This document shows positions 1-28,930 of a DNA stretch of 64,000 nucleotides, piece by piece. The stretch is from Lingula anatina. Taxonomy: Eukaryota; Animalia; Brachiopoda. Each line of letters starts with the position of its first letter. Positions within the stretch are counted from its first letter, which is position 1. Location of the stretch: positions 3,968,001-4,032,000 of the forward strand of contig JBPQGU010000016.1 of NCBI GenBank assembly GCA_051362555.1. The letters run 5' to 3'. The notes under the pieces were generated by a model, which was not told the origin of the DNA, made no database searches, and was given only the letters and a program-made list of their open reading frames with translations. The translations under genes were made by a program, and so were the position numbers.

Positions 1-3000
1 CCCCCCCCCCTCTCAGATTCTGTTCTCAGAGCTTATTTTTGGATCATCTTTAAAGCTAGAATTGGGGGCCTTGATGAAGTGACCAGGGCGCGTTTCCACA
101 TTTTTTATGAATGACAGGTGTGGTAGATTGATTTTCGTCACTTTTTGGAAAAATCGGAGACTGGTCGATTTTTGGTGATTTTGAGTGATTTTGAACAGTG
201 CCGGCACTGTGAGATTTCTTCAATTTTGGCCAGGTAGGGATGAAAATTTTTTTTCTTCATTATAGTGTCAGGTAGGTGTGTTCGGTCATTTGTAGTAAGA
301 ATAAAGTGCTGGAAGAGTGGTGGTGTCAACATTAAGGAAGAAAAAGAGCAAAAACTCTCTCTCCCCCCCCCCTCTCAGATTCTGTTCTCAGAGCTTATTT
401 TTGGATCATCTTTAAAAAGCTAGAATTGGGGGCCTTGATGAAGTGACCCGGGCGCGTTTCCACATTTTTTATGAATGACAGGTGTGGTAGATTGATTTTC
501 GTCACTTTTTGGAAAAATCGGAGACGGGTCGATTTTTGGTGATTTTGAGTGATTTTGAACAGTGCCGGCACTGTGTGATTTCTTCAATTTTGGCCAGGTA
601 GGGATGAAAATTTTTTTTCTTCATTATAGTGTCAGGTAGGTGTGTTCGGTCATTTGTAGTAAGAATAAAGTGCTGGAAGAGTGGTGGTGTCAACATTAAG
701 GAAGAAATAGAGCAAAAACTCTCTCTCCCCCCCCCCCTCTCAGATTCTGTTCTCAGAGCTTATTTTTGGATCATCTTTAAAAAGCTTGAATTGGGGGCCT
801 TGATGAAGTGACCCGGGCGCGTTTCCACATTTTTTATGAATGACAGGTGTGGTAGATTGATTTTCGTCACTTTTTGGAAAAATCGGAGACGGGTCGATTT
901 TTGGTGATTTTGAGTGATTTTGAACAGTGCCGACACTGTGAGATTTCTTCAATTTTGGCCAGGTAGGGATGAAAATTTTTTTTCTTCATTATAGTGTCAG
1001 GTAGGTGTGTTCGGTCATTTGTAGTAAGAATAAAGTGCTGGAAGAGTGGTGGTGTCAACATTAAGGAAGAAATAGAGCAAAAACTCTCTCTCCCCCCCCC
1101 CCTCTCAGATTCTGTTCTCAGAGCTTATTTTTGGATCATCTTTAAAAAGCTAGAATTGGGGGCCTTGATGAAGTGACCCGGGCGCGTTTCCACATTTTTT
1201 ATGAATGACAGGTGTGGTAGATTGATTTTCGTCACTTTTTGGAAAAATCGGAGACGGGTCGATTTTTGGTGATTTTGAGTGATTTTGAACAGTGCCGGCA
1301 CTGTGAGATTTCTTCAATTTTGGCCAGGTAGGGATGAAAATTTTTTTCTTCATTATAGTGTCAGGTAGGTGTGTTCGGTCATTTGTAGTAAGAATAAAGT
1401 GCTGGAAGAGTGGTGGTGTCAACATTAAGGAAGAAATAGAGCAAAAACTCTCTCTCCCCCCCACCTCTCAGATTCTGTTCTCAGAGCTTATTTTTGGATC
1501 ATCTTTAAAGCTAGAATTGGGGGCCTTGATGAAGTGACCAGGGCGCGTTTCCACATTTTTTATGAATGACAGGTGTGGTAGATTGATTTTCGTCACTTTT
1601 TGGAAAAATCGGAGACTGGTCGATTTTTGGTGATTTTGAGTGATTTTGAACAGTGCCGGCACTGTGAGATTTCTTCAATTTTGGCCAGGTAGGGATGAAA
1701 ATTTTTTTTCTTCATTATAGTGTCAGGTAGGTGTGTTCGGTCATTTGTAGTAAGAATAAAGTGCTGGAAGAGTGGTGGTGTCAACATTAAGGAAGAAAAA
1801 GAGCAAAAACTCTCTCTCCCCCCCCCTCTCAGATTCTGTTCTCAGAGCTTATTTTTGGATCATCTTTAAAAAGCTAGAATTGGGGGCCTTGATGAAGTGA
1901 CCCGGGCGCGTTTCCACATTTTTTATGAATGACAGGTGTGGTAGATTGATTTTCGTCACTTTTTGGAAAAATCGGAGACGGGTCGATTTTTGGTGATTTT
2001 GAGTGATTTTGAACAGTGCCGGCACTGTGAAATTTCTTCAATTTTGGCCAGGTAGGGATGAAAATTTTTTTTCTTCATTATAGTGTCAGGTAGGTGTGTT
2101 CGGTCATTTGTAGTAAGAATAAAGTGCTGGAAGAGTGGTGGTGTCAACATTAAGGAAGAAATAGAGCAAAAACTCTCTCTCCCCCCCCCTCCTCTCAGAT
2201 TCTGTTCTCAGAGCTTATTTTTGGATCATCTTTAAAGCTAGAATTGGGGGCCTTGATGAAGTGACCCGGGCGCGTTTCCACATTTTTTATGAATGACAGG
2301 TGTGGTAGATTGATTTTCGTCACTTTTTGGAAAAATCGGAGATGGGTCGATTTTTGGTGATTTTGAGTGATTTTGAACAGTGCCGGCACTGTGAGATTTC
2401 TTCAATTTTGGCCAGGTAGGGATGAAAATTTTTTTTCTTCATTATAGTGTCAGGTAGGTGTGTTCGGTCATTTGTAGTAAGAATAAAGTGCTGGAAGAGT
2501 GGTGGTGTCAACATTAAGGAAGAAATAGAGCAAAAACTCTCTCTCCCCCCCCCCTCTCAGATTCTGTTCTCAGAGCTTATTTTTGGATCATCTTTAAAGC
2601 TAGAATTGGGGGCCTTGATGAAGTGACCCGGGCGCGTTTCCACATTTTTTATGAATGACAGGTGTGGTAGATTGATTTTCGTCACTTTTTGGAAAAATCG
2701 GAGACGGGTCGATTTTTGGTGATTTTGAGTAATTTTGAACAGTGCCGGCACTGTGAGATTTCTTCAATTTTGGCCAGGTAGGGATGAAAATTTTTTTTCT
2801 TCATTATAGTGTCAGGTAGGTGTGTTCGGTCATTTGTAGTAAGAATAAAGTGCTGGAAGAGTGGTGGTGTCAACATTAAGGAAGAAATAGAGCAAAAAAC
2901 TCTCTCTCCCCCCCTCCCCCCTCTCAGATTCTGTTCTCAGAGCTTATTTTTGGATCATCTTTAAAGCTAGAATTGGGGGCCTTGATGAAGTGACCCGGGC

Positions 3001-6000
3001 ACGTTTCCACATTTTTTATGAATGACAGGTGTGGTAGATTGATTTTCGTCACTTTTTGGAAGAATCGGAGACGGGTCGATTTTTGGTGATTTTGAGTGAT
3101 TTTGAACAGTGCCGGCACTGTGTGATTTCTTCAATTTTGGCCAGGTAGGGATGAAAATTTTTTTTCTTCATTATAGTGTCAGGTAGGTGTGTTCGGTCAT
3201 TTGTAGTAAGAATAAAGTGCTGGATAAGTGGTGGTGTCTACATTAAGGAAGAAATAGAGCAAAAACTCTCTCTCCCCCCCTCCCCCCTCTCAGATTCTGT
3301 TCTCAGAGCTTATTTTTGGATCATCTTTAAAGCTAGAATTGGGGGCCTTGATGAAGTGACCCAGGCGCGTTTCCACATTTTTTATGAATGACAGGTGTGG
3401 TAGATTGATTTTCGTCACTTTTTGGAAAAATCGGAGACGGGTCGATTTTTGGTGATTTTGAGTGATTTTGAACAGTGCCGGCACTGTGAGATTTCTTCAA
3501 TTTTGGCCAGGTAGGGATAGAAAATTTTTTTTCTTCATTATAGTGTCAGGTAGGTGTGTTCGGTCATTTGTAGTAAGAATAAAGTGCTGGAAGAGTGGTG
3601 GTGTCAACATTAAGGAAGAAATAGAGCAAAAAACTCTCTCTCCCCCCCTCCCCCCTCTCAGATTCTGTTCTCAGAGCTTATTTTTGGATCATCTTTAAAG
3701 CTAGAATTGGGGGCCTTGATGAAGTGACCCGGGCGCGTTTCCACATTTTTTATGAATGACAGGTGTGGTAGATTGATTTTCGTCACTTTTTGGAAGAATC
3801 GGAGACGGGTCGATTTTTGTTGATTTTGAGTGATTTTGAACAGTGCCGGCACTGTGTGATTTCTTCAATTTTGGCCAGGTAGGGATGAAAATTTTTTTTC
3901 TTCATTATAGTGTCAGGTAGGTGTGTTCGGTCATTTGTAGTAAGAATAAAGTGCTGGAAGAGTGGTGGTGTCAACATTAAGGAAGAAATAGAGCAAAAAC
4001 TCTCTCTCCCCCCCTCCCCCCTCTCAGATTCTGTTCTCAGAGCTTATTTTTGGATCATCTTTAAAGCTAGAATTGGGGGCCTTGATGAAGTGACCCAGGC
4101 GCGTTTCCACATTTTTTATGAATGACAGGTGTGGTAGATTGATTTTCGTCACTTTTTGGAAAAATCGGAGACGGGTCGATTTTTGGTGATTTTGAGTGAT
4201 TTTGAACAGTGCCGGCACTGAGATTTCTTCAATTTTGGCCAGGTACGGATGAAAATTTTTTTTTCATTATAGTGTCAGGTAGGTGTGTTCGGTCATTTGT
4301 AGTAAGAATAAAGTGCTGGAAGAGTGGTGGTGTCAACATCAAGGAAGAAATAGAGCAAAAACTCTCTCTCCCCCCCCCCCCCTCTCAGATTCTGTTCTCA
4401 GAGCTTATTTTTGGATCATCTTTAAAGCTAGAATTGGGGGCCTTGATGAAGTGACCCGGGCGCGTTTCCACATTTTTTATGAATGACAGGTGTGGTAGAT
4501 TGATTTTCGTCACTTTTTGGAAAAATCGGAGATGGGTCGATTTTTGGTGATTTTGAGTGATTTTGAACAGTGCCGGCACTGTGAGATTTCTTCAATTTTG
4601 GCCAGGTAGGGATGAAAATTTTTTTTCTTCATTATAGTGTCAGGTAGGTGTGTTCGGTCATTTGTAGTAAGAATAAAGTGCTGGAAGAGTGGTGGTGTCA
4701 ACATTAAGGAAGAAATAGAGCAAAAACTCTCTCTCCCCCCCCCTCTCAGATTCTGTTCTCAGAGCTTATTTTTGGATCATCTTTAAAGCTAGAATTGGGG
4801 GCCTTGATGAAGTGACCCGGGCGCGTTTCCACATTTTTTATGAATGACAGGTGTGGTAGATTGATTTTCGTCACTTTTTGGAAAAATCGGAGACGGGTCG
4901 ATTTTTGGTGATTTTGAGTGATTTTGAACAGTGCCGGCACTGTGAGATTTCTTCAATTTTGGCCAGGTAGGGATGAAAATTTTTTTTCTTCATTATAGTG
5001 TCAGGTAGGTGTGTTCGGTCATTTGTAGTAAGAATAAAGTGCTGGAAGAGTGGTGGTGTCAACATTAAGGAAGAAATAGAGCAAAAAACTCTCTCTCCCC
5101 CCCTCCCCCCTCTCAGATTCTGTTCTCAGAGCTTATTTTTGGATCATCTTTAAAGCTAGAATTGGGGGCCTTGATGAAGTGACCCGGGCGCGTTTCCACA
5201 TTTTTTATGAATGACAGGTGTGGTAGATTGATTTTCGTCACTTTTTGGAAGAATCGGAGACGGGTCGATTTTTGGTGATTTTGAGTGATTTTGAACAGTG
5301 CCGGCACTGTGTGATTTCTTCAATTTTGGCCAGGTAGGAATGAAAATTTTTTTTCTTCATTATAGTGTCAGGTAGGTGTGTTCGGTCATTTGTAGTAAGA
5401 ATAAAGTGCTGGAAGAGTGGTGGTGTCAACATTAAGGAAGAAATAGAGCAAAAACTCTCTCTCCCCCCCTCCCCCCTCTCAGATTCTGTTCTCAGAGCTT
5501 ATTTTTGGATCATCTTTAAAGCTAGAATTGGGGGCCTTCATGAAGTGACCCAGGCGCGTTTCCACATTTTTTATGAATGACAGGTGTGGTAGATTGATTT
5601 TCGTCACTTTTTGGAAAAATCGGAGACGGGTCGATTTTTGGTGATTTTGAGTGATTTTGAACAGTGCCGGCACTGTGAGATTTCTTCAATTTTGGCCAGG
5701 TAGGGATGAAAATTTTTTTTTTCATTATAGTGTCAGGTAGGTGTGTTCGGTCATTTGTAGTAAGAATAAAGTGCTGGAAGAGTGGTGGTGTCAACATCAA
5801 GGAAGAAATAGAGCAAAAACTCTCTCTCCCCCCCCCCCCCCTCTCAGATTCTGTTCTCAGAGCTTATTTTTGGATCATCTTTAAAGCTAGAATTGGGGGC
5901 CTTGATGAAGTGACCCGGGCGCGTTTCCACATTTTTTATGAATGACAGGTGTGGTAGATTGATTTTCGTCACTTTTTGGAAAAATCGGAGACGGGTCGAT

Positions 6001-8510
6001 TTTTGGTGATTTTGAGTGATTTTGAACAGTGCCGGCACTGTGAGATTTCTTCAATTTTGGCCAGGTAGGGATAGAAAATTTTTTTTCTTCATTATAGTGT
6101 CAGGTAGGTGTGTTCGGTCATTTGTAGTAAGAATAAAGTGCTGGAAGAGTGGTGGTGTCAACATTAAGGAAGAAATAGAGCAAAAAACTCTCTCTCCCCC
6201 CCTCCCCCCTCTCAGATTCTGTTCTCAGAGCTTATTTTTGGATCATCTTTAAAGCTAGAATTGGGGGCCTTGATGAAGTGACCCGGGCGCGTTTCCACAT
6301 TTTTTATGAATGACAGGTGTGGTAGATTGATTTTCGTCACTTTTTGGAAGAATCGGAGACGGGTCGATTTTTGGTGATTTTGAGTGATTTTGAACAGTGC
6401 CGGCACTGTGTGATTTCTTCAATTTTGGCCAGGTAGGGATGAAAATTTTTTTTCTTCATTATAGTGTCAGGTAGGTGTGTTCGGTCATTTGTAGTAAGAA
6501 TAAAGTGCTGGAAGAGTGGTGGTGTCAACATTAAGGAAGAAATAGAGCAAAAACTCACTCTCCCCCCCTCCCCCCTCTCAGATTCTGTTCTCAGAGCTTA
6601 TTTTTGGATCATCTTTAAAGCTAGAATTGGGGGCCTTGATGAAGTGACCCAGGCGCGTTTCCACATTTTTTATGAATGACAGGTGTGGTAGATTGATTTT
6701 CGTCACTTTTTGGAAAAATCGGAGACGGGTCGATTTTTGGTGATTTTGAGTGATTTTGAACAGTGCCGGCACTGTGAGATTTCTTCAATTTTGGCCAGGT
6801 AGGGATGAAAATTTTTTTTTTCATTATAGTGTCAGGTAGGTGTGTTCGGTCATTTGTAGTAAGAATAAAGTGCTGGAAGAGTGGTGGTGTCAACATCAAG
6901 GAAGAAATAGAGCAAAAACTCTCTCTCCCCCCCCCCTCTCAGATTCTGTTCTCAGAGCTTATTTTTGGATCATCTTTAAAGCTAGAATTGGGGGCCTTGA
7001 TGAAGTGACCCGGGCGCGTTTCCACATTTTTTATGAATGACAGGTGTGGTAGATTGATTTTCGTCACTTTTTGGAAAAATCGGAGACGGGTCGATTTTTG
7101 GTGATTTTGAGTGATTTTGAACAGTACCGGCACTGTGAGATTTCTTCAATTTTGGCCAGGTAGGGATAGAAAATTTTTTTTCTTCATTATAGTGTCAGGT
7201 AGGTGTGTTCGGTCATTTGTAGTAAGAATAAAGTGCTGGAAGAGTGGTGGTGTCAACATTAACGAAGAAATAGAGCAAAAACTCTCTCTCCCCCCCCCCT
7301 CTCAGATTCTGTTCTCAGAGCTTATTTTTGGATCATCTTTAAAGCTAGAATTGGGGGCCTTGATGAAGTGACCTGGGCGCGTTTCCACATTTTTTATGAA
7401 TGACAGGTGTGGTAGGTTGATTTTCGTCACTTTTTGGAAAAATCGGAGACGGGTCGATTTTTGGTGATTTTGAGTGATTTTGAACAGTGCCGGCACTGTG
7501 AGATTTCTTCAATTTTGGCCAGGTAGGGATGAAAAATTTTTTTCTTCATTATAGTGTCAGGTAGGTGTGTTCGGTCATTTGTAGTAAGAATAAAGTGCTG
7601 GAAGAGTGGTGGTGTCAACATTAAGGAAGAAATAGAGCAAAAACTCTCTCTCCCCCCCCCCTCTCAGATTCTGTTCTCAGAGCTTATTTTTGGATCATCT
7701 TTAAAGCTAGAATTGGGGGCCTTGATGAAGTGACCCGGGCGCGTTTCCACATTTTTTATGAATGACAGGTGTGGTAGGTTGATTTTCGTCACTTTTTGGA
7801 AAAATCGGAGACGGGTCGATTTTTGGTGATTTTGAGTGATTTTGAACAGTGCCGGCACTGTGAGATTTCTTTAATTTTGGCCAGGTAGGGATGAAAATTT
7901 TTTTTCTTCATTATAGTGTCAGGTAATTGTGTTCGGTCATTTGTAGTAAGAATAAAGTGCTGGAAGAGTGGTGGTGTCAACATCAAGGAAGAAATAAAGC
8001 AAAAACTCTCTCTCCCCCCCCCCCCCCTCAGATTCTGTTCTCAGAGCTTATTTTTGGATCATCTTTAAAGCTAGAATTGGGGGCCTTGATGTAGTGACCC
8101 GGGCGTGTTTCCACATTTTTTATGAATGACAGGTGTGGTAGATTGATTTTCGTCACTTTTTGGAAAAATCGGAGACGGGTCGATTTTTGGTGATTTTGAG
8201 TGATTTTGAACAGTGCTGGCAATGTGAGATTTCTTCAATTTTGGCCAGGTAGGGATGAAATGTTTTTTTTCTTCATTATAGTGTCAGGAAGGTGTGTTCG
8301 GTCAGTTGTATTAAGAATAAAGTGCTGGAAGAGTGGTGGTGTCAATATTAAGGAAGAAATAGAGCAAGAACAAGTCCTACCTGGAACAATAGAGCAAGTT
8401 TCCACATTTTTTATGAATGACAGGTGTGGTAGATTGATTTTCGTCACTTTTTGGAAAAATCGGAGACGGGTCGATTTTTGGTGATTTTGAGTGATTTTGA
8501 ACAGTGCCGG
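1..8510. repeat. Satellite DNA array (left), ~362-366-bp monomer, ~23 copies, runs off window start
   Basis: Tandem recurrence of the same unit (poly-C, CTCTCAGATTCTGTTCTCAGAGC...ACAGTGCCGGCACTGT...GAAATAGAGCAAAAACTCTCTCT). Monomers read TTTTCGTCAC and carry scattered shared variants. Confidence 0.99.
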
Positions 8511-8549
8511 TGTAGCGTGCCGTAGAGTCCGGCCCTTTCAGAGTCCGGC

Positions 8550-8608
8550 GGACCCTATGTTTTAAAACTGAGTGTCCGGCAGACACTCAGTTTTAAAACA
8601 TAGGGTCC
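8550..8608. repeat. Perfect inverted repeat (27-bp stem, 5-nt loop) in left end of Ginger element
   Basis: GGACCCTATGTTTTAAAACTGAGTGTC-cggca-GACACTCAGTTTTAAAACATAGGGTCC. Confidence 0.95.
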
Positions 8609-9162
8609 ACGGATACTAAGTTTTAAATCTGAAAGTCCGGGGGACTTCATATATTAAAACGCACAGTCCGCAGACTTTTAGATTTAAAATGGACAGTCCG
8701 CTTTGAATCGGAGGGCCCCCCTAATTGTGGCATTTTAGGCAATAGAAAATGGAGTTTAATCCGTACTAATACGGCTATATTCCTTATTTTTTTGCAATAT
8801 GTACGCTTTATACATTTCATTGAAGTAATAGTTATATTGGTGCAATATAATTGTAACCAATTATCAATAAAAAATAAAATTTATTGAATTAAAAAGACAA
8901 GAATACAGAAAGCCTGGGTGTTTATTGTTTACAATCTTTGTTTTACAAAATACTCATTTGTGTCATTCTTTTATATTTAATTGGTTTCAGCTTCGCCTTC
9001 AGCTCTGAAATACAGAAAAATCAACGTGCTGTAAATGCCGTCCAAATTGGTAATGAAAACGCAATGACAATATATATAAAGTTGATGTTTCAATAGCTAA
9101 CATTGTTTTTATAGATTAGATAAAAGATGTTTTTTACATTTTATAATTTTTAAAAAGAAAAA

Positions 9163-9809
9163 TCACCTATTTTCTCTGTACTGCTTTAGTTGACCAGCAC
9201 CCACAGCCCTCTTAAACTTTTTCCCTTCTAAATTTTGCAGAATATACGTGCCGTTTGGCTTCTTCGCCACTATTGTGTATGGTCCCATGTACCTTGGGGC
9301 AGCTTTGCCTCCCTTTCTATCTTCCCTTCTGAGGTTTTTCTTTAAAACTTTACTTCCAACCTGAAAGTCCTTCGTGAAAAATATTTAAAATGGTATGTAT
9401 TATCGATGGTAAAAAAGAATATATGCCACACACCATTGATACTACGTACCTTAAAGGAAATTACACAATGTCAATATATTTGATAAAGATATTGATTTTC
9501 TGTGAAAATAAGACATTACTTAAGTTTTTAATCCTTAGTATATCATTAACAAGAAATTAATTCCTACTTCACTCTGGTGTCTCAGGTCGTAATATTTTTT
9601 TTGCTTTTCTTGGGCAGTACGGATGTTCCTTTGTGCTGCTTGTCTGACAATATTGTTAAGGTGGTTAATGGTTTCTACCCTGGAATGCACATCTTCCACA
9701 ATTTCACCAACTTCTTCATCAGTTTGAAGACTTGGTTCCCTGAAATTAAGTGTATTGGCAGTTATTATTCAAAATGTCGTTGGCATTAGATCTGTCATAT
9801 TGTCAGCAC

Positions 9810-9853
<44 letters not shown>

Positions 9854-11826
9854 TCATCTATCAGTTAATGTACATAGAAATAAAAATAATTATTTACAAC
9901 TGCAACTTTTAATAAAAGTGAATCTCTAATTTTTTCTTTTATTGATTTATAAGAGTATATTTCAATTTGATGCGATTAAAATACATACACTCCAAACATC
10001 AAGAAATAGGGACTCATCTTGGTGGAATCTTGTATTGCTGTGTTGTAGGCAAATACACAGCCAGCTAGGGTATCGTCCCACCTTTTTGGGTCGTCGTATG
10101 ACTTTGCCATACTATTTTGAATGGTCTGATTGAATCTCTCTGTGTTTGAAGAGCAATAAAGTAAAATAGCATCATCAATGCCAATAGAAATCAGTATAGA
10201 ACGTGAGGTACTATAAGGTGAGGTACTATAAACCTTATAGAGTAAAATAAAAAACACTGTAAAGGCGTTTAAAAAAAAGCGAATTAGAAAAAATTATGTA
10301 ACATTTACTATGTGTTTGCGTTAAAATTTCGAACTGGCACTAATAGGGAAAGTTCTAAATTTATTAAATAATAAAAAGATCGCCGATTTAGTTAGTATGA
10401 AGCAGATCGACTCACCAGTTAAGCCGTTTGACTGTGGGTGATATGGAGAGGTTATTTGTCTTCTTGTTTTAGTTGTTTTACAAATCTCATCAATGAGGTG
10501 GTTGTTGAATTCCCGACCCTGGTCAGAGATGATCACACTCGGGAATCCAAATCTAAATCAGGTAATCGATAGCATTAATAAATAAAATATAAGATAACAT
10601 GAGTTTAATATATTATCTCAATATGTTATTTAATAATGACGAGATGCATAGATGATTCACAGGCAAAATGAAGAAGTTTTAGCACTATAGAATAAAACAC
10701 TCACATCATCATGAGTTCAAGGAGGTATGAAGCTACTTCAGTGGCACATTTGCTCTTAAAAGGTTTTGCCGAAGCATGTTTTGTCAAATAGCACAACACT
10801 GAACAGAAGTACTTGTTTCCGTTGTACGATTCCTCCATTGCCACAAGGTCAATTCCAATCTGTAATAGATATTTTATAATAACATGAATATAAAGTAATA
10901 TCTGTGTTAAAGGAAAAAGGCATTGCGGGTGTGTTACATTTTGGCCTGTCATGTATAATAATTGATGGATAACAATTTCGTAATCTTTATTAAGCTTTTT
11001 TCTATATTTTAATGTGTAATTATTAAAAAGGGGTAACTACCTGGCTCCATGGCTTACAACTAGACACTGGTACTGGGTGGAGAGGAGGGGTGGTGTTCTT
11101 AGCTTTTGGATTTTGCATTTGACATCTATGGCACCTAGCTATGTATTTTTTTACATCATCTGACATGCGATGCCAAAAGAAACGTTGCTGCACTTTGAGG
11201 AGAGTCTTTGTGACTCCCATGTGACCACCTACATTAAAACATTAAAAGAGACATTAAAGATAATGCAAAATACTAAAAGCATATAATGCCAACCAAATAA
11301 TTTAAAAATATAATAAGTCTGAACATAAGTTGCGTCCTTACTTTCGTCATGTAATTGCTTTATTATTGTGTGCTTCTCCTCAGAATTTTCCACAACTTTC
11401 CTCCATTTTCCGTTAGTGACCGTGGTTCCTCCATCCTCAACATTATTGATTTTCTTTTCAGTTCTGTACAATAGTATTCCATCTTGTAGCTAGAAAAAAA
11501 GGGAAATTAAGAAATACGCTATGCGCGCTCCATGAGGTAGAGACGAAAATGTTGATACGAAATTAAAAAATGCTTGTGTTATCATGCAGTTACAGCGTCT
11601 TTGTATACACCCAATGAACACTTTTTTACAATGCTTCTTGCATTATGTAATTATATGACAACCTGCAAATTGACAGTCTGAAACAGTGTTAAATATACGC
11701 AGCTAGTATTTTGTTTACCTTGTAATGTTTTTTAGCGGTGCGTCTCAAACATCTTTTAGCGTTCAACGTTGCGCCAGCTTGGTACTTTCCCTCTAATAAA
11801 TACAACCGCACCGCTTTAGGATCCAT
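9163..11826 (-). CDS. Spliced Ginger1/GIN1-like transposase (H2C2 zinc finger + DDE core + GPY/F), ~421 aa (429 aa if terminal exon 8977-9004 is used)
   Basis: Manual GT-AG exon model (minus strand): 11826-11719, 11489-11342, 11228-11041, 10859-10705, 10552-10416, 10139-9989, 9739-9568, 9369-9163 (TGA); total 1266 nt, in frame, no internal stop. Motifs: MDPKAVRLYLLEGKY..KRCLRR; LHDESGHMG..RFFW..CHRCQ; IGID; ISDQGREF; SPYHPQSNGLTERFNQT; FAYNT..SPYFLMFG; AQEKQKKYYD; YMGPYTIV. Optional splice 9167 to 9004 adds AEGEAETN*; AATAAA (minus) at 8921-8926. Confidence 0.9.
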
Positions 11827-12476
11827 CGTGAGTTGACTGCGAGTAAGATGAACCCTCCATAAATATATAGGTCTCGTGTGTGAAGAGTTATAATTCCCTG
11901 AGGCGTACCCATTAATACACGGGTGTATATCTTTAGATGGGTTTAGCTTTTACGTTGGTTTATCTAGTGAATGCAGTAAAATACACCCAGCGTAAAATGA
12001 GATTACCCATCGAAAAGTATTCACCAAATATTATGATAAAATAAAAAATAACATTGGTATAACGATAAAAAGGACCAATTATAGTTTAGGAATATGTTTA
12101 TATAAATACTCTGAAATGGGGCTCCTGTGTGATACGAACCTGTTTACTCACCATATCCATATCATCTGCTGGATAGCCTCTATTCCATCTCTGCATCTCT
12201 GCCACTGTACCACGAAGGAAGCTGTGCCGAAAACCCGAAACACGGTAACTCTTATTGTCAACGCCTTTTCGTGTTCAGTAGTAATACAATACGAATATTG
12301 ATTTCTATTCTTATGAACACTTAATACATGTATAAATATTTAAATTAGAGGACAAGCACGGACTCTGAGTTTTGCTATAGTTGTAACGTGACAGAAAGTC
12401 CGTGTAATAGAGAGTCCGGGGGACCCTATATTACACGGACTCTCTGTCACACTAGAGGGACCCTATATTTTAATGA

Positions 12477-12537
12477 GGACTCCCGGTTTCAGAAACCAGG
12501 GGTCCGTAGGACCCCTGGTTTCTGAAACCGGGAGTCC
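12477..12537. repeat. Perfect inverted repeat (29-bp stem, 3-nt loop) in right end of Ginger element
   Basis: GGACTCCCGGTTTCAGAAACCAGGGGTCC-gta-GGACCCCTGGTTTCTGAAACCGGGAGTCC. Confidence 0.95.
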
Positions 12538-12576
12538 GCGGTCTCTATGTTTCGACGGACTCTGTGTCACGTTACA

Positions 12577-13060
12577 CCGGCACTGTGAGATTTCTTCAAT
12601 TGGTAGGGATGAAAATTTCTTTTCTTCATTATAGTGTCAGGTAGGTGTGTTCGGTCATTTGTAGTAAGAATAAAGTGCTGGAAGAGTGGTGGTGTCAACA
12701 TTAAGGAAGACATAGAACAAAAACTCTGTCTCCCCCCATCTCCGATTCTGATCTCGGAGCTTATTTCTGGATCATCTTTAAAGCTAGAATTGGGGGCCTT
12801 GATGAAGTGACCCGGGCGTATTTCCACATTTTTTATTAATGATAGGTGTGATAGATTGATTTTCATGACATTTTTTTTTATTTTGAGTGATTTTCATAAG
12901 TGCCAGCCATGTGAGATTTCTTCAATTTTGGCCAGGTAGGAATGAAAATGTTTTTTTCATTATAGTGTCAGGTTGGTGTGTTTGGTCATTTGTAGTAAGC
13001 ATAAAATGCTTGAAGAGTGGTGGTGTCAACATTATTGAAGAAATAAAGCAAAAACTATGT
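12577..13060. repeat. Degenerate terminal ~1.4 monomers of left satellite array
   Basis: Satellite resumes in register after the TSD, with increasing substitutions and deletions, and ends near AAATAAAGCAAAAACT (~13056). Confidence 0.95.
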
Positions 13061-14439
13061 ATACAGATTCCTGCTATATTATTATTTTATCTTTAATTTA
13101 TCGAATTTTATGATGCCTTTCCTATATACATAGTCCTTTTTTAAAATAATTACCGTATCAGATTTTTAAAACCTAGAACAAAAGTTTTCAGTTTGTCTGT
13201 CTTTTTTATTCCAACAATTTCAGCAGCCATTACTGTTCCCGAGACACCTTGCCTGTGCTATCAAACGAATCCTGTTACTTACAGCACAGGAGCACCAAAG
13301 AGTTTGAAGAGTGCTTTACAAGTCATCAGTCAAATTAAGCAGAAATGGTCTTAGCTTTGCAAACCGGTGTCAAAGGGTCAAATCAAGTATTCCAAGCCTT
13401 CCAAGGACTAGTATGATGTAAGTCAGTATGGACAATATATTAAAGGTCCAAAAGCATCAAAGTCTTTAAGGTACTCGCCCCACGCCGCAGCATGTCATCG
13501 AAGAAATGACCCCTTGATGATAGGGATATGGATTGCAAGTGTTCTGGAGGCTCCAAGACAACTGTCTATAGCAGGTTCTGGTACTTGCATAGTGGGTCTT
13601 CAAACCCTTGGTATAGAAAGTACAAACCAGCAGCTTAATCTGGAAGTTAAAAAGAAAAAACAGCCATAAGTCCATGCATTAAAATCATGTTGAAATCTCT
13701 TTTTGGAAATTAGAAAAACGACTATTGCAATTATTAGAGAAGGCTTAATTAACTTTGAGTGTGCATTTTTTATGAACTGATACTTCCTTGTGAACAAAAA
13801 CTCTGAAAAGATTTCAACATTTTGTATTTTTGGCAATAATGAGAAATGAATGAACATTCATTGATTAATTATTATCATTATTTATTTATTTATTTATTTT
13901 TTTGCTATTTCCACTTGAGGGTGCTTACGCAAATTTGGCAGATTTCCCAAGTTTTGGGTTAAAAGCACAATGTTGTTATTTTGGGTCTTTATGAGGTAAT
14001 GTGATTTTGTCAGCATATTAGTTAAATGAACAACTTTGTCTGGATGCCCCACTCCTGCCTCAAATGAGATTTTAAAAGCAAACATCAATATCTATAAAGA
14101 CAAGTTTTAATGCTTATTTTTGAACACATTTCACATAAATCACATTTCACATGATGATCTGGGCTGATTTTGTCAAAGTTAAAGAAACCCCATTTTGAAC
14201 ACTGATGACAATTTAAGTAAAACCATGTTACTCATGGATCTCAATCTTACAGAAAAGGTAAATTGGACTGAAATACAGCTTGAGTTAGAAAACTGAACTG
14301 TTTGCATTCTTTTTCTGAGAGTTATTTATTTATTTAATTATCATTATTATTATTATTATTTATTATTATTATTTTCAAAATAATTTTTTTTCACATATTA
14401 GCATTTTCTTCGTGAGACTTGGAACTCCCACGGGATGAA

Positions 14440-18039: not shown

Positions 18040-20650
18040 ATGATTACGACTCCGTAGACGACATGGTTGATGAGTCCAGTGGAAGCGAACACTTTACCTT
18101 GGCTGATGTAATGAAAAAAATGGAAAGTAAAAAGAAAGAGACGAAAGACTATTTCGACCATAGACTGTCTACTTTTAATGCCGAAGCCGGTAAAACCTGA
18201 AAGTCGACAATATTTATCTTGGAAAATAGAAGGTAATCACCAGCAATTTGACTCAACAGTATTTGAAAATAAGATTATTGTGGTGAACAAACTGACAGTG
18301 CCTTACAGTCTTGGCAAGAGAAACAAACTTATCAGAATTGCTGACACTTTCGACACTGTTAAGGAACATACTGTTAATCCTCTTGCTTGTGATTCTGAGA
18401 GCGAGAGAGCTACAAAGAAAATAAAAGAAAACAAAAAGGGAGCCAAAAAAATAAGGTTATATCAGCAGACCGACCGATAGGTGTGGTGGGCGATACTTCT
18501 CAGCGGAGAAGTCTTTATCGCAGCAGCGGGTCGTGACTTTGCTTAGCTTGTTGAGGAAAGGGCCATTTCATGCTTGAGTGACCAACTTACAGAGGGGAAA
18601 GTTATTCTACCAGAGTCCAACCCCAGAGATAAAGGAACATCTGGAATGGGATAGAAGGCGGAAGCATTGAAAAATAGATAAGTACCCGGTACATGTATGA
18701 GTGCGTTAGTTTCAATCAAGAGTTGCATAATTATGAACATGAGCAAAATCAGAAATTCATACCCGTGAAAAGTAGGTTAAGAACCAATTTAAGTTTTTGG
18801 GAAGAAGTAGGGTATTCATTTTTTATTCTAGACTTGATAAAAATGGTTATAAATTTCCGTTTATAGCAACACCCTGTGGGATGAGGAAAGATAACAGCTT
18901 TCACCATTGAAAAATAAGTTTTTTGTTAAAAAGCTATTCTTGAATTGAAAAAGATGCGTTTGATTAAAAGGTGTAGCAAACAACCAATTGTTGATAACCC
19001 TTAAACAGAAGCAGTGCATAGCAGTGAAAAAAATAGATTGATTTTAGATGTACGAGAAGTAAACAAACATGTCTGTAAGCAGTCTGGTAGTTACGGACAT
19101 TTGAGAACGGCTCTTATGTTTATGAAACTGTGTGGTTGGTTGATTAAATTTGATTCAGCTAATCAACATCTAGATATCTATTATCCTCATACGGATTATT
19201 GAGGTTTTTCATGGAAAATTCAAGATCAGCAGATTTATTTTTGATTCTTAGTTCTTCCATTTGGGTTATCATTAGCACTTAATATTTTTTTTCAAAATTG
19301 ACTTGGCAATTAATCAAAGAATGGTTCGATGTTATTGGATGACGGTCTGTGGTACTGCAGTAACATAGATAGATTGGAGCATCAGGGTGCTGAGATCAAA
19401 GATGATATTGCTAAGTCAGGTTTTATGTAAATATATGAGAATACTATTTGGTCGTAGGTACAGAGTCTGGCATTTATAGGCATCGAAATAGATATTAGTA
19501 TTGGGGAAATCAAAGTTCTTGATATTAGATTAGCAAGTGCTAAGAGATCTGACATTATATTCGCACGAAAGTGAGCAGAGGTCTGGCTATGTCGGTCGGA
19601 TTATACTATGTCTCATGTGTTGGGAAGTGTAAAACAACTAATGACAAATTATATTAGCATGGTTATTTCAAGTGCTTTTTCTTAGAATCAGAAAATGTGT
19701 GTGAAAGCATGCAGTCAAATTAGACCTTGGTGTAGTAAATCAGAATTTTACAGTTTTCACCTCAGTGCAATAAGGTAGTTTATTCTGATGCTAGTAGTAC
19801 TGGGTTTGGAGGATATTGTGTGGAGACACCTAAAAGGGTGTGTTGCGGGGAATGGTCAGCTGACGAAGCGACGGAGAGCTCTACTTACAGAGAACTGATA
19901 GCTGTTTTCAGGGTCCTGTTCTCCATGGCAAACACGTTGAGTGTTTTGAGATTGAAGTGGTTTTCTGATAGCAAAGATGTTGTAAACATTAAAGAAAAAA
20001 GTAGCATGAGGAGTAAATTACAACCTATTATTTTTGATGTTTTTCTTCTAATGGAGTTATTCAATAGAAATGAAAGGATACTGAGAGAAGAGAATACCCA
20101 TGCAGATTATATAAGTAGAAGTGTGGATGTTGACAATTGGGGTATTTCTAAAGAATTATTCTCACATTTTGATAAGATATGGGGTCCTCATGAAGTGGAT
20201 TGGTTAACGTCCTGCTACAATGCTAAAGTACATAGGCCTATTTTTACTCTAGATTTTAGAATTCAGGAACAGTGAATGGGACACGCGTCATTTACGGATC
20301 TATCCTGGTCCTCAGATCAAATTCAGTCTCTTATTTCTACCAATGAGTTACAACAGACTCCTTGTTTCTATATTGTTTCCGACAGACTGTTCTGGTCCTT
20401 CGCCTGTAAATATCCATCATGACGTAATCAAATGTGGCACCGAAACGTGCCCTTGGCTGACTCTGTTATGGTCTCAAAATTTTTGAAGCTTTAAGCTTTT
20501 AGATGCTACCTAGTTTCTTATTGAAAAGTCGAGATATAGAGGTGGCAATTGGCTTTTGATAAATCGGGTTAAATCGTATTTATGCCCAGTAAAAGTTCTT
20601 GAAAATATTTAGATTTCATTGGTAGGCCTCGATCCTAGCTACAGCTTTTC
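18040..20650 (+). mobile_element. Degenerate DIRS-type (tyrosine recombinase) retrotransposon: gag, RT, RNase H, methyltransferase-like and YR remnants
   Basis: gag-like KRNKLIRIAD..NPLACDSE (18178-18480); RT RLILDVREVN, IKFD, GFSW, VLPFGLS, LDDG (~19030-19350); RNase H YSDASSTGFGGY, WSADEATESSTYRELIAV, REENTHADYISR (19781-20130); DNW..WGPHEVDW; YR fragment IEKS..YRGGNW..LCPVKVL (~20515-20610). Many stops and frameshifts. Confidence 0.88.
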
Positions 20651-22797: not shown

Positions 22798-23290
22798 AAT
22801 GGACTCGCCCCACCTGTCACCCCTCAAATCGAATGGACTTGTCCCACCTGTCACCCCTCAGATGAAATGGACTCGCCCCACCTGTCACCCCTCAAATCGA
22901 ATGGACTCGTCCCACCTGTCACCCCTCAAATGGAATGGACTCACCCCACCTGTCACCCCTCAAATCGAATGGACTCGCCCCACCTGTCACCCCTCAAATG
23001 GAATGGACTCGTCCCACCTGTCACCCCTCAGATGGAATGGACTCGCCCCACCTGTCACCCCTCAGATGAAATGGACTCGCCCCACCTGTCACCCCTAAGA
23101 TGAAATGGACTCGCCCCACCTGTCACCCCTAAGATGAAATGGACTCGCCCCACCTGTCACCCCTCAGATGAAATGGACTCGCCCCACCTGTCACCCCTAA
23201 GATGAAATGGACTCGCCCCACCTGTCACCCCTCAAATGGAATGGACTCGTCCCACCTGTCACCCCTCAAATCGAATGGACTCGACCCACT
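22798..23290. repeat. 34-bp minisatellite, ~14.5 copies
   Basis: Unit AATGGACTCGCCCCACCTGTCACCCCTCA(A/G)AT(C/G)(G/A); GGACT at 22801, 22835 and onward. Confidence 0.97.
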
Positions 23291-23310
23291 TGAAAACTTT
23301 CAATGCAGGT

Positions 23311-25623
23311 CAGTGGTGGGTGGAAGGGTATCACGTGATTTTCGGGAGCCAATGAAATAAGCAGGAATTTTACACTCCGTTATAGGTAAACAAAATGGCA
23401 CGTTCGACGCACCAGGAGGATTGTTTATTTAGGAGGCATGCACATAAATTTGGTGGGTATTTTAAAAGCATTTTACTATTTACAACGATCAGTACCATCT
23501 CAACTTAACTCATGTGAAGTGATTTTCAAGTGTTTGGTCTGTTTATGTTTTTATGACAATTTAAATTAGGCATAGCTTCATATGTAGTTTGACAATTGTA
23601 AACTGAAGTTTTCACACCACAAGCCTTCTTTCAAGTGAAATATCTCGAAAAGCACTGGGACGATTTTTTTCCAACTTTTCAGTAATGTTGCTCATTTATT
23701 TGTTGACAAAAAGTGCCGATGGCACCCGATGGCACCCCTGGATCTTTGGAGTTATAGACGGTATAATCCTTCATACCCAATTACGACCATTTTTGTAGGA
23801 ATGCGTCTTTATAATGTTAAACTCCCTCATTAAAAAGCATATATCTGAAAAAGTAAACGGTAGATTTTTTCCAAATCTTAATCTGACGTTTTTCGTGTAC
23901 CTTTTTACATAATATGTAGCCTGCAACTGACAGCACCCCTGGGTCTTGGGATATATAGACAATGCAGTGCCATGGCAAATTACGGCCATTTTTGTTTGAG
24001 TGAATTTTGGATCACGCAGACCCCGTCTTTCAAATCAAATATCTGAAAAAGCAATCGGACAATTATTTTCAAAATTGTCAGAAATGTTGCTTAGATATTG
24101 GTTAGCAAAAAGAGCCTATGGCACCCAATGGCACCCCAGGATCTTGAGAATTATAGGCTGTATATAGTGCATGCCAAAGTACTGTTTTGGTTATCCCACG
24201 GCCAGCATTTATAACAACAGCATAATTGCACTTGTATATCACTTACATGCTTGTCTGTATTTTAAAGCATAATGTGCAATCTGATCACTATACAAGCACA
24301 TTCCTACAACTGTTGAAGGGCTAGTCATGGTATTAGTCAGTTACAACTACTTGTCATTCACTGTGTATGATGTACAAGAGCCTATTATATCTCAACTGTA
24401 GCTCCATATAATAGCACTCTTTTATGCCACATACAGTAATTGGCTCAAGTACATATCAAATAAACATTTTTTTTTAAATACTGATGATAGTCTCATATCT
24501 TTTTCAGCATGGACTACAATTTTTATTTTTGAAATGCTGTGCACTATAAAGGTGAGAAGTAATTCATCGGAATGCCATAGTTGTAAACTTGTGACTTATG
24601 TTTCCATTGCTCATCTATTTCGTTAACATTGACAAAAACATGTTCTGTGTTTGTTTTGCCTAAACTTTCATTTTAATCTTACTATCATAAAAATTGAAAT
24701 CATATTTAAGTATAATGGTAACAGGTTACCTAAAAAGTTGAAGCCTTATCCAGTTAAATAATAATAATATCAAATATAAAACATTTACTGCTTTTTAATT
24801 TCAGGGAATGGAAACAGCTTTTAACCTCATAATAGGATACCGCCTATGGATTGTAGCTGAAATTAGAGACTTGAGATAACAGGAATGATGTTTGTTATTT
24901 CCAAAATCTGTGCCTTCATGGAGTGTGACATTGTAATAAACATGATTGCTTTTTAATTACTCAGTCATCAAATGTTAAATTAGTAGTTTGTCACAATATC
25001 AAATATTGTATTATCTGCATAGAGAATTCCCCTCATCTTTTGTAAGTTAAGTTTTGATTAATTAAGTAAAGTGAGTAGTAAGTCTCATGAACTTGGAGAA
25101 AATTAAATACTGCAGATCTTGAAAAAACTTCGTTTATTGTGATTTCTGTCAGGTATGAGGATTTGTAAATGTTGATAATACATTACATTTTCTGTCTCTT
25201 ATTATATGCATTTACCATGATTTCTCACTCTGAGTAATGTTCGCATCTGGCAAACTAACTTGAAATTCAAGGCATATTTTATAGTTTTAAAAAAGTGATA
25301 TTAAAATCTGACCAATACGAATTTAAAGTAATCTGAATTCTATCAGGATTTCAGTCTTGCCTGTGCTATGTATGTATTTGTAGGTTGTCACCCTTTTAAA
25401 TCATTTAAAAAGTATTATTATATTATTTCAATATTTTGTGAATATTTAAATGAGTTATAAAATTTATAAGAAAAATGTAAGAAATAAAATATACTGTTAA
25501 TTATGTTTTTATGAAATATGTGAAATAAAAAGTTTATAATCATATCAAAGTTCTTCCATTTGTTTATGATAATTTTGTCATTTTACATTTTCTTTGCCTT
25601 AAACTTTGGTCAAGCTTACTTTC

Positions 25624-25668
<45 letters not shown>

Positions 25669-26226
25669 TTGTCACATGCCCTTTCTTATAGTTATCTGAA
25701 TTATCAACTTGTCATAATTTACTATTTTAATTTCTAGAGTTAATTATTATTCTTATTCAAACAAGAAATTATCAATTATACACAGAAAAATTAAAGTCAA
25801 TAACAAATCAACACTGCCAGCAAATTTTACTCTGCCCAAGCTACAGTCACTATATATAGGATAGTAGGCCTACACACTGACAGAGATGTGATACCTATGC
25901 CACGGTGACATTTTACAACTCTACTCGTCGGTTTGTTGATCATAAATTGCACATTTTTTCAAGTGTTTCATTATTAGTTTGTAGCATCCATATTTATATT
26001 TATATACATTTATACATAATGAAACAAAGTCGGCGTAACGTTACGCAAATGCCCCAATAAACAATGCATCGCACACAGTTGCGCCAACGCTTTACTGGAC
26101 GAAGACGCAGGAAGACGTCGCCGGGAGCTCACTTTCGATGTTCACTCTTCGACGGCAAAACGTCAAATGACTGACGTGCGTGCGCATCTTTTGACGTATC
26201 ACGTGATACCCTTCCAACCACCACTG
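23311..26226. mobile_element. Non-autonomous TIR DNA transposon, 2916 bp, 29-bp TIR, 9-bp TSD (Mutator- or AcademH-like; unresolved)
   Basis: CAGTGGTGGGTGGAAGGGTATCACGTGAT at 23311 vs ATCACGTGATACCCTTCCAACCACCACTG ending 26226 (28/29 inverted). Perfect TSD AATGCAGGT at 23302-23310 and 26227-26235. No long ORF. Confidence 0.92.
23625..24170. repeat. Three diverged ~200-bp tandem units inside the TIR element
   Basis: ATATCT(C)GAAAA(A)G ... GCACCCC(T/A)GG(A/G)TCTT ... TATAG recurs at ~23640, ~23840 and ~24040. Confidence 0.75.
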
Positions 26227-27029
26227 AATGCAGGTCGTCTTCTTACAGGGTCTAGCTATCCAGTGACCAACCAGGAGCATAGCTTGCACTGCGATGCGCG
26301 ACTTTTTCTTATGCAAATTACAACTGGTACAGTGCATGGCACATTTGAGGAGTTGCTGTGGAAATTGGTCTCAAAGAACGGCGAAATTATGGAAATTATT
26401 TTACTATTGTGACAAGGCTATTACCCGCGTAGACCTATTTGTCACCATACATAATATTTTTCTAGGACAACTAGTTTATATTAAATCAAAAACTAAAAAT
26501 AGCAATGAAGATAGGTATAACAAGTAAATGATGATGCTCATACATTCGGGGAGTAGCTTTGCGTAGGATGAAATATATTGTATTGTACGCCCCCCTGGCT
26601 GTCGATTGTAAGTAATAGACATAAACTGGCCCGCTCGAAGATTCTGCGGGTCCGTGGTCAAAGTTAAATAAAAATAACCATGATTAAGGGAAGTTATTGA
26701 AGTTATCAATTTAAGATTTTAGAGATACTAATAAATTTACCTTTTTTAACACTGGTCGTATTCACAAAAGATCGTAAACATTACAGAGAGAAGGAAAAGT
26801 ACCCAAGAGAAGGGAGGTGGGGGGGGGGGGTGTGAAGGAGCGCAATGTGAAACAAATTAATATTATGTTCTTATTTATCTATTCAATTTCATAAATAATT
26901 TGTAAACTCTTCACTCTTGATTCAAATAAATAAAAAGCAACAATTAAAACTTGTAGTACTTGCCACAGAAGCCAAACTGAAGTAAAACATTTGAAATAGC
27001 ATAAAAAGAGGAAGACAAGTAAAAAAAAT

Positions 27030-28930
27030 TAAATTCTCAAATTTTTAGAAACTAATAATCTTTCTTCGACAGTATCCTTAACATAACCGTCTTTTGTGTT
27101 TTCAGATCGCCATCTACCGTGTTTCTTAAACAGTCTGTCTTTAGTCCCTGCATTAGAATCCAGCATATGAAATCAAACAAACGGAAAGTACTCGGAGATC
27201 CTTCAAAGTGACTTCAGAACTCATAAAATTAGTAACCAATTTAGAAATGTGCTTAGCAGTTACAGGTTCCTTTTTTGTTACTCTATGATCTTTCCGTCTC
27301 TGAGATGCTTCCTTCACTGCAATAACGAATTTTGACTCGCAATTTCGGATTTTTCTTACAGTTGGCTGTACCATGAAACCATTTTAAAGTGTAAAAAGAT
27401 GTCTAAACCGCAGCAGAATAATTACAAGTTTGTGACAAATTTTGAAGATAAAAAGCAACAATCGAGTCTTTCGCTGTAAAGAAAGAGGTCACACCGATCG
27501 TATTACACCGTTCAAGCCATTTTTGGAAGCCGTAAGAATATTTTCTCACTGTGTTGTCTGCTCTTGACTTCAAAATGACATCTGGTAATGAATCTGCTAA
27601 AGCCTTCAAACTTTTATTGCTTGTAACCTTCACGTCTTGGAGGATAGCATTATCAAGAAAACATGAAAAAGGAAAAAAAGAAAATTTTTGAAAACAAAAC
27701 TCTAGCAATCGTTCCCATAATCTCTGTTCATTCTGGACAATAATCATGTCCATGTTAACTGTTATTGATCAATAATTGTGATCCTAATGGCCATTTCTTC
27801 CATTCCTTCCTTCAATGTTGCAGAACTCCATTACAGCATGTTGTATCGATAACCCATTGGTAACTAGAGCGCAGACCTCCGCCAAGGCAGCGATTTTTTA
27901 TTATTATTGATTTTTGATTGATTATTGATCCGGATCACCACCAAAAAATAATCATCTCTTCCTTGGCCCACTTCGTGCAGTTCCTGAAAAATTCATCAAA
28001 ATCGGTCTAAGAAATACATAAACAAAGCCATCTCCATTATATCAATGATCCAGTGATCGTCTGTTTATCTCTCCTTCGAAGAAAGTGAGTTTTAAATTCT
28101 ATAAACAGATGACCAATTATTCATCTACTTTAAATCCCTTTAAATATGAAAAACTTATTCGTATTTAAAACAAATGGTCCCAAACCGGGTTTTCTGGCAT
28201 CTGAATAGACCGTTTTTAACTTACTAGGCAAGCTTTGTACACGTAGACTTTTCTCATTTAAAAAAAAAAAAAAAGAAAACTAAATTGTCTTTCCAAAAAT
28301 TAATTCTTTAATGCAAGACATTCGTCTTTAATATTAATATTAAAATCCCAATGCTTCCTCTAGTTATTTATCTAGATACATTTCCAATCAATGGAGACAT
28401 AATAATAAAACAGAAATAATTTTACCTGTAACCCTGGCCAATTTTATAGCTGTTATATACGGTAAATCTGAAACCAATTCGTGTAAAAGACACAGAGCAT
28501 TACTAGTACATGTAGAAAGCCTTCTTTCGGGAATAAACAATCCCCTTACTTCCATGTCCCAAATAATCCCCAACCATTCCAATTTGTTGACTGGTTCTAA
28601 TTTACTTTTTTCAGCGTTTAAAACAAAATCTGCTTTAAACAGATCCATTTTAATTTTTTAGAATGTAGTTTTAAATGTAATATATTTTTCTAGGGAATTT
28701 TCAGACACAATACCGTCATCTAAATAAACAACAATGGGGATTCCATTTTTCTCCAATACCCAACTAAACGTCTAAGTATTTTAGTAAAAATAAACGGTGC
28801 TGAAGAAAGGCCAAACGAAAGTACCAAAAAAAAAAAAAAAAAAAAAAAAATTCTTTCCGTTGATTTAAAAAAGTTTGAGATGCCGGAGCAATATCTAAAT
28901 GGTGAATAAATAAATAAACACAACACTTAA
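27030..28930 (-). mobile_element. Second degenerate DIRS-type retrotransposon (RT and tyrosine recombinase remnants), internally deleted
   Basis: RT: VLSFGLSSAPFIFTKILRRLVGYWR, IVVYLDDGI, LEWLGIIWD (28388-28930). YR: SRADNTVRKYSYGFQKW, KKEPVT, LRVLSVCLISYAGF (27153-27660) and C-terminus RLFKKHGRWRSENTKDGYVKD (~27075-27140). Confidence 0.9.
27861..28010 (+). mobile_element. Helentron/HINE-like fragment inserted in the DIRS remnant
   Basis: AACTAGAGCGCAGACCTCCGCCAAGGC...GATCCGGATCACCACCAAAA...AAATTCATCAAAATCGGT, motifs I recognise from non-autonomous Helentron-type repeats. Recognition only. Confidence 0.5.

Follow-up and report, generated by a model that had tools for sequence, protein, structure and literature searches.

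A probably complete Ginger1-type DNA transposon with an intron-rich, integrase-like transposase gene in satellite DNA of the brachiopod Lingula anatina

To which kind of mobile element does an integrase of the retroelement type belong when it lies between inverted termini and is divided among many short open reading frames (ORFs)? This question is raised by a locus of the brachiopod Lingula anatina, at positions 8511-12576 of a 64,000-nucleotide stretch referred to here as the window (assembly GCA_051362555.1, contig JBPQGU010000016.1, forward-strand positions 3,968,001 to 4,032,000). An earlier note had described it as a Ginger1-type DNA transposon with an intact spliced transposase, and its ends, target site duplication (TSD), open frame, protein motifs and homology agree with that description. 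The element is very probably a complete Ginger1-type DNA transposon that duplicated CCGG on insertion, carries an unbroken integrase-like transposase gene across seven or eight predicted coding introns and likely moves by cut-and-paste.

The element comprises 4,066 bp with both termini present, beginning with TGTAG and ending with TTACA (TGTnR ends: TGTAG and TGTAA). Its limits and terminal structures are the following (terminal inverted repeat, TIR):

8507-8510, no strand: left copy of the TSD, CCGG; empty site in sister satellite monomers
8511-8531, plus strand: 3' TIR (TGTAG...), 17/21 match to the opposite end
8540-8700, no strand: 3' subterminal array of ~31-bp GTCC/GGAC subrepeats, with two palindromes, 8550-8608 (perfect 27-bp arms) and 8621-8689
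12382-12576, no strand: 5' end cassette, 195 bp, with inverted terminus copies at 12382-12403 and 12555-12576
12577-12580, no strand: right copy of the TSD, CCGG; empty site in sister satellite monomers

When the two flanks are rejoined with a single CCGG they give a satellite palindrome exactly as found in the common form of the monomer. Among 113 matches to the satellite anchor, the palindrome core ACAGTGCCGGCACTG was intact in 107, variant in three and interrupted by the element itself in one, the remaining two being non-satellite. Since sister monomers show the empty site, the CCGG duplication is a true 4-bp TSD, and the earlier statement that both ends and the TSD are intact is borne out. 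The satellite-anchor scan found one copy of the element in the window, and the element itself is the only CCGG|TGTnR...YnACA|CCGG pair in these 64 kb; a CCGG|TGTnR sequence at 13364, considered as a second element end, was rejected as both a partner and terminal repeats were absent.

Most of the window consists of this 361-366-bp satellite, which forms arrays at 1-8371 (23 copies) and 32149-64000 (88 copies) and occurs also at 12577-13100. Neighbouring monomers are 98.1% alike in the first array and 99.8% alike in the second; the insertion is located at the right edge of the first, where the edge monomers are 92-94% alike to the array and have deletions. CCGG occurs twice per monomer (87 and 87 counted in the second array), at a density of 4.4-5.5 per kb in the satellites vs 0.58 per kb in unique DNA. 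The satellite was likely the site of insertion because its CCGG density exceeds that of the adjacent unique DNA about ninefold, so that no targeting needs to be invoked; satellite targeting as a proven property was discarded, there being a single insertion only. A literature search on satellite insertion returned nothing relevant beyond the papers cited here. Each monomer also contains a perfect 16-bp palindrome.

The best gapped local match between the two ends scores 29 (shuffled maximum, 26). The palindromes of the 5' cassette occupy 12388-12450 and 12477-12537 (perfect 29-bp arms), and its inner terminus copy resembles the far end at 37 of 51 bases, with no CCGG beside it. GTCC/GGAC subrepeats number 10 per terminal 200 bp vs nine in the whole 3,666-bp interior. 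When folded as DNA, the 5' end cassette and the 3' array reach z values of -12.6 and -11.2, respectively, and none of 200 shuffles was as stable.

The transposase gene lies on the minus strand. Eight exons, counted from the ATG at 11826, are joined by seven GT-AG introns (113-276 nt) into 421 codons; exon 8 ends either at the stop at 9165-9163 or at a donor at 9166, which leads to a ninth exon (9369-9167 + 9004-8978) and a form of 429 amino acids (aa). In transcript order the features are:

12152-12318, minus strand: upstream exon, likely non-coding; 5' limit approximate, from read depth
11964-12151, minus strand: leader intron, 188 nt, GT-AG; spliced in six reads of a related copy, two runs
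11719-11963, minus strand: exon 1; leader 11963-11827, coding from the ATG at 11826 to 11719, degenerate YPYY motif
11342-11489, minus strand: coding exon 2; first His of HHCC; acceptor used in reads of the related copy
11041-11228, minus strand: coding exon 3; the other three HHCC residues (His, Cys, Cys); Integrase_H2C2, E 3e-16
10705-10859, minus strand: coding exon 4; Asp152 (IGID)
10416-10552, minus strand: coding exon 5; Asp210 (SDQG), YHPQSNG and base 1 of the Glu246 codon; sub-cutoff rve match, E 6e-4
9989-10139, minus strand: coding exon 6; opens with bases 2 and 3 of the codon for the catalytic Glu246
9568-9739, minus strand: coding exon 7; linker/helix
9163-9369, minus strand: coding exon 8; RKGGK, GPY and an SH3-like domain at the C-terminus; sub-cutoff PF24626 match, E 9e-4
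8978-9004, minus strand: optional last coding exon of the 429-aa form; predicted, without read support
8880-8926, minus strand: two AATAAA hexamers, candidate polyadenylation signals

The joined frame, re-derived here, encodes an HHCC-DD35E-GPY protein, has no internal stop and every predicted intron is GT-AG, in agreement with the frame first proposed; the GC content is 42% in exons and 27% in introns. The predicted introns interrupt the protein after residues 36, 86, 148, 200, 246, 296, 353, and 421, in phases 0, 1, 0, 2, 1, 2, 0, and 2, respectively. The fraction of homologue alignments that cross each junction without a gap is, in order, 22/32, 13/66, 98/114, 130/136, 142/142, 104/143, 33/143, and 16/22. 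The catalytic Glu codon, Glu246, is indeed split G|AG between 10416 and 10139, and it is this junction that all 142 spanning alignments cross gap-free. The full-length alignment to natural homologues, together with the gap-free split-Glu junction, indicates that the exon chain did not arise by chance. A missing exon between exons 6 and 7 was considered and rejected, as the junction fits the homologues' motif by eye and 104 of 143 alignments are gap-free. Intron 6 contains a run of 35 A at 9815-9849 (T on the coding strand); behind it, on that strand, lies a possible further acceptor, which leads into a frame with an early stop. Within the element the longest ORF has at most 111 codons, stop to stop, and word-index searches with exon 8 alone and with exon 3 alone gave no match; such elements are therefore easily overlooked, in line with the expectation that annotation based on ORFs only would miss this one.

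The predicted protein has the residues H83, H88, C118, and C121, a D152-D210-E246 triad (D-35-E) and GPY at 382. The YPYY motif, located upstream of the zinc finger, is degenerate, with three Tyr columns that align with homologues and Gln at the Pro column, where the sponge protein P0188 has Glu. The proposed Pfam comparison gave Integrase_H2C2 within a single exon, while rve and SH3_Tf2-1 remained below the cutoff and five of the eight exons had no integrase-family match. Residues 4-424 of the joined protein align with P0188 (Ulp1+PHD; 36% identity, E 1e-90) and residues 9-423 with P0187 (37%), several homologues starting within about 10 residues of the element's Met. The best identity to any relative is 47%, in the core. 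P0188 scores 284 bits vs 214 bits for the best locus linked to reverse transcriptase (RT), and identity to a Pol protein is 30%. In a tblastn search of the window (six OTU/Ulp1/PHD queries), neither RT/RNase H nor OTU nor Ulp1/PHD gave a match at E<1; about 270 bp are left between the gene end and the 3' end arrays. Atlas searches gave nothing but SH3/integrase C-terminal leads for exon 8 and were non-discriminating for P0188, since clusters named GIN1 and gag-pol score equally; a search of viral_contigs found no relative. P0197, a metagenomic gene call, is a Ginger1-type protein of 380 aa that ends just past GPY like the element's protein and is its nearest tree row.

Phylogenetic placement separates this protein from RT-linked integrases. 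A first tree from a quick search (110 rows, i.e., 122 hits minus 12 cluster duplicates, one of them RT-bearing) placed the query on a long branch within a 24-row OTU/Ulp1/PHD set (support 99). A metagenome scan then supplied 80 loci, of which 52 RT-linked ones served as contrast and 28 were left out. In a second quick tree, whose non-RT rows included 24/34 labelled OTU, four Ulp1/PHD and four without such domains, the query grouped with all 28 domain-bearing rows (94) and P0055 fell among the RT-linked rows; P0055 was removed before the careful run. In the careful tree a 98/95 branch unites the query with 28 OTU/Ulp1/PHD rows and three without a C-terminal domain, and none of 53 RT-linked rows, although the non-RT rows were gathered with queries seeded from the element and are thus biased toward it. 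The grouping inside long terminal repeat (LTR) Gypsy pol, named beforehand as the contrary outcome, was accordingly not found. By eye, the core motifs DQGREFxN and YHPQxNG..ER match animal Ginger1 entries (PMC10045372 Data S3), whereas most Ginger2 entries there have an SDNG/RHPQSQG pattern. None of the 80 metagenome loci showed CCGG-flanked TIRs. When 12 of the 28 non-RT loci were inspected less strictly, a single element with long TIRs emerged (L071:4764-8661). This locus has an integrase and lacks an RT match, its nested inverted matches suggest that the TIRs are several hundred bases long, and it is possibly another Ginger-like element.

Of nine RNA runs of the same species, seven were aligned, about 6-30% of each being read. 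At 90% likeness, four runs gave 10, 0, 2, and 0 reads (12 in total) and no splice joints; at 80%, four runs gave 114 reads, two of them at least 99% alike and one at 95-99%. A joint between 12152 and 11963 (six reads, two runs, GT-AG) and another between 11790 and 11489 (15 reads, three runs) derive from a related copy; the latter bears out the exon-2 acceptor, and its start site, GA in the window, is presumably a copy-specific donor of that copy. The joint reads occur in pairs with the first mate on the plus strand, which corresponds to RNA of the minus strand, provided that the library has the usual strandedness. The upstream exon suggested earlier is thus partly confirmed: its donor at 12151 is used in reads of the related copy, but the acceptor is 11964, 127 nt upstream of the proposed 11837, which reads cross unspliced and which was therefore rejected as the observed form. 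This exon is likely non-coding because an in-frame TAA follows the splice at 11952-11950; two upstream ATG frames in the leader overlap the main ATG. Twenty reads of run X8 carry a related terminus after a different flank ending GTGCCGG, which suggests that a related element has inserted at another site with CCGG beside it; that flank has three extra bases in common with the element's target, a single case noticed post hoc. Among 16 coding differences in the related copy (32 further table rows lie outside this count), eight codons are synonymous and seven non-synonymous, a balance which suggests past selection on the encoded protein.

How the element compares with described systems was examined in excerpts of the cited papers. 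Ginger1 elements (Bao, Kapitonov, Jurka 2010; PMC2836005) have TIRs of 40-270 bp (13 families with a TIR value in Table 1), CCGG/CCGT TSDs, TGTNR ends, 0-4 introns and proteins with YPYY, HHCC, DDE, and GPY motifs followed by OTU or Ulp1 tails, which one family lacks; their enzymatic mechanism of excision is stated there as unknown. The element shares with them the TGTnR termini, a 4-bp CCGG TSD, a length within 2.6-7 kb, GT-AG introns and a single transposase with YPYY-like, HHCC, DDE, and GPY motifs. It departs in its seven to eight coding introns plus a leader intron, about twice the maximum tabulated in PMC2836005, in a TIR of about 21 bp, in a 421-429-aa protein without OTU/Ulp1/PHD (~500-800 aa in Ginger1) and in its palindromic subterminal arrays, of which the excerpts of PMC2836005 make no mention. 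Intron-bearing Ginger1 elements are already known, and PMC12863088 calls the group multiexon; what differs here is the number of introns, the short TIRs with strong subterminal palindromes and the lack of OTU/Ulp1. The lancelet Ginger1-1_BF is close in size (4,068 bp) and likewise without a C-terminal domain but has no introns and a 77-bp TIR, and the hydra Ginger1-9_HM, whose Ulp1+PHD layout is that of P0188, the best database match, has two introns and a 120-bp TIR (PMC2836005, Table 1); the cores of both resemble the element's by eye only (PMC10045372 Data S3). Ginger2/Tdd and GingerRoot/IS3EU also carry an integrase-like DDE transposase between TIRs (PMC2836005; PMC6839031; PMC10045372), but Ginger2/Tdd uses AT-rich RTATAY targets and lacks GPY and YPYY (PMC2836005), and GingerRoot has 6-bp TSDs and mostly TA ends, without HHCC/GPY (PMC6839031; PMC10045372). 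The literature search brought up neither a Ginger1 element exceeding four introns nor one whose ends are palindromic, though Marin 2010 and Repbase may hold such cases. The element is best filed as a Ginger1-type variant, agreeing with the family in TSD, termini and protein motifs and departing from its standard members in TIR length and tail.

Several findings weigh against this assignment or against an active copy. The TIR is short and imperfect (17/21 over ~21 bp, the ungapped match declining to 22/40 and then 50/100) where Ginger1 has 40-270 bp, and the predicted protein has no OTU/Ulp1 C-terminal domain, for which one described exception exists. The junctions after residues 86 (13/66) and 353 (33/143) are weakly gap-free and lie in variable-length regions. 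The tree group was defined by domain content and includes no named Ginger1 sequence, and an approximately unbiased (AU) test did not reject a tree in which the query branches off as sister to all 31 remaining non-RT rows (p 0.485), so that nesting inside Ginger1 is not established. With regard to transcripts, only three of 114 reads are at least 95% alike, which indicates that most come from other copies. The exon-1 donor at 11718 is unseen in reads, the related copy joining from 11790 instead, and no joint was found among the aligned reads for introns 2-8, where depth is near zero; the proposed read check therefore upheld the leader intron and the exon-2 acceptor, in the related copy, but left six or seven coding junctions without reads. 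The related copy has ATC in place of the start ATG and continues into foreign sequence at 11377 (13 reads; runs X1 and X3), so this transcribed relative is broken. These read data do not sustain the earlier description of a recently active family. The foreign sequence begins GC-rich and is probably another element inserted in exon 2.

The same departures from Ginger1 could be taken as signs of a distinct sister lineage, with this element as its first representative, defined by a CCGG target, short TIRs with cruciform-forming subterminal palindromes and a transposase that never had a protease domain. A basal position is allowed by the AU test, the best relative is only 47% identical in the core, each end has two palindromes beside its short TIR, no C-terminal protease is present, and the coding introns exceed the 0-4 of Ginger1 (PMC2836005, Table 1). 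Such a lineage is nevertheless unlikely: the nearest rows are Ulp1/PHD-bearing proteins and P0197, itself without a C-terminal domain, Ginger1-1_BF was already described without one (PMC2836005), and the element agrees with Ginger1 in TSD, termini and each of the four protein motifs. It is possible, though doubtful, that the copy is intact but non-autonomous, either an OTU/Ulp1-exon deletion derivative or a silenced element last moved by the transposase of another. Most described Ginger1 transposases have OTU or Ulp1, and PMC2836005 leaves it possible that Ginger1-1_BF is a deletion; hardly any closely matching reads occur in the seven runs, and the upstream ATG frames overlap the start. On the other hand, a clean stop with AATAAA signals behind it closes the frame, no protease remnant was found in the window by tblastn, all catalytic residues and splice dinucleotides are kept, and the eight synonymous vs seven non-synonymous codons of the related copy suggest past protein selection.

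Multi-exon genes for Ginger1-type integrases are otherwise known as host genes, namely GIN1/GIN2 and Imagin (PMC2836005; PMC3424704; PMC12863088), and the intron number of the element equals that of GIN genes (six to eight, PMC2836005; eight coding exons in GIN2, PMC3424704), as would be the case for a domesticated, immobile gene that gained introns after domestication. GIN1/GIN2 and Imagin are fixed and single-copy, have no TIRs or TSD and are often catalytically dead, and GIN1/GIN2 are recognized by loss of TIR and TSD, a conserved single locus and three conserved intron positions; Imagin has neither DDE motif nor inverted repeats (PMC12863088), whereas the element has both. A domesticated gene is very improbable here, given that both termini and the exact TSD are kept, sister monomers show the empty site, and the related reads, at 80-95% likeness and broken, fit a repeat family. 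To our knowledge, the exons of human GIN1 seem to be divided at other places than those of the element. A remnant of a Gypsy LTR retrotransposon has hardly any likelihood: the integrase is Gypsy-like, sharing 30% identity with a Pol protein and scoring as high as 214 bits against RT-linked loci, but such elements have RT/RNase H, direct LTRs and no pol introns, while here the termini are inverted, the introns spliceosomal (GT-AG) and RT matches absent, and the tree position is apart from the 53 RT-linked rows. The view that the introns argue against RNA-mediated transposition is supported.

As a Ginger1-type transposon, the copy is probably young, with less than about 5% neutral divergence, because an intact frame seldom survives random substitution: frame, ATG and splice dinucleotides remained intact in 36, 15, 0.75, and 0.05% of 2000 simulations at 1, 2, 5, and 10% substitution, respectively. 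The intact frame suggests youth only and is no proof of activity; judged from its sequence, the element is likely still usable for cut-and-paste. In the proposed mechanism, a minus-strand transcript starting near 12300 would be processed by the host spliceosome and translated into the 421/429-aa protein, the upstream ATG frames possibly damping translation. The transposase would bind the GTCC/GGAC subterminal repeats (candidate binding sites) at both ends, which may offset the short, imperfect TIR, and the palindromes could extrude as cruciforms. Cleavage by the transposase would take place at the TG...CA termini, which would then be inserted into the target at CCGG with a 4-bp stagger. This scheme is modelled on the DDE integrase family and on the account of Ginger1 in PMC2836005. 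Since the mobile form would be DNA, introns are copied along and can accumulate.

Other repeats and ORF fragments lie elsewhere in the window. A 30-bp inverted repeat pair (97%) 2.9 kb apart at 23310-26227 is probably another non-autonomous DNA element, and a 34-bp minisatellite (14.5 copies, 93% matches) occupies 22798-23289. ORF fragments occur at 19739-20275, with a weak RVT_3 match (E 0.0015), and at 27403-27768, without a Pfam match; by their motifs we take these to be remnants of a DIRS-type RNase H and recombinase. A minus-strand fragment at 29381-29683, also without a Pfam match, has motifs that resemble those of a Kolobok-type transposase.

Tentatively, the element may represent a still-mobile Ginger1 sublineage with the intron density of a host gene (a gene of 1.3 kb with 8-9 introns, one of them within the catalytic Glu codon), which dropped the protease domain and has hairpin-forming end arrays in place of long TIRs, one array being a self-contained 195-bp mini-element. 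If so, many introns of GIN-type host genes could have been gained during the mobile stage, the target preference would extend beyond CCGG to a palindrome of the GTGCCGGCAC type, and the element would offer a minimal natural set of enzyme and ends for a first test of a retroviral-type integrase excising a DNA transposon. For an excision assay, an intact, protease-free transposase of 421 aa, combined with defined ends and a target site already known, makes a simple start. Whether the introns of GIN1/GIN2 derive from the transposon or were acquired after domestication was left open in PMC3424704; a mobile element with seven to eight coding introns would mean that such numbers can precede domestication.

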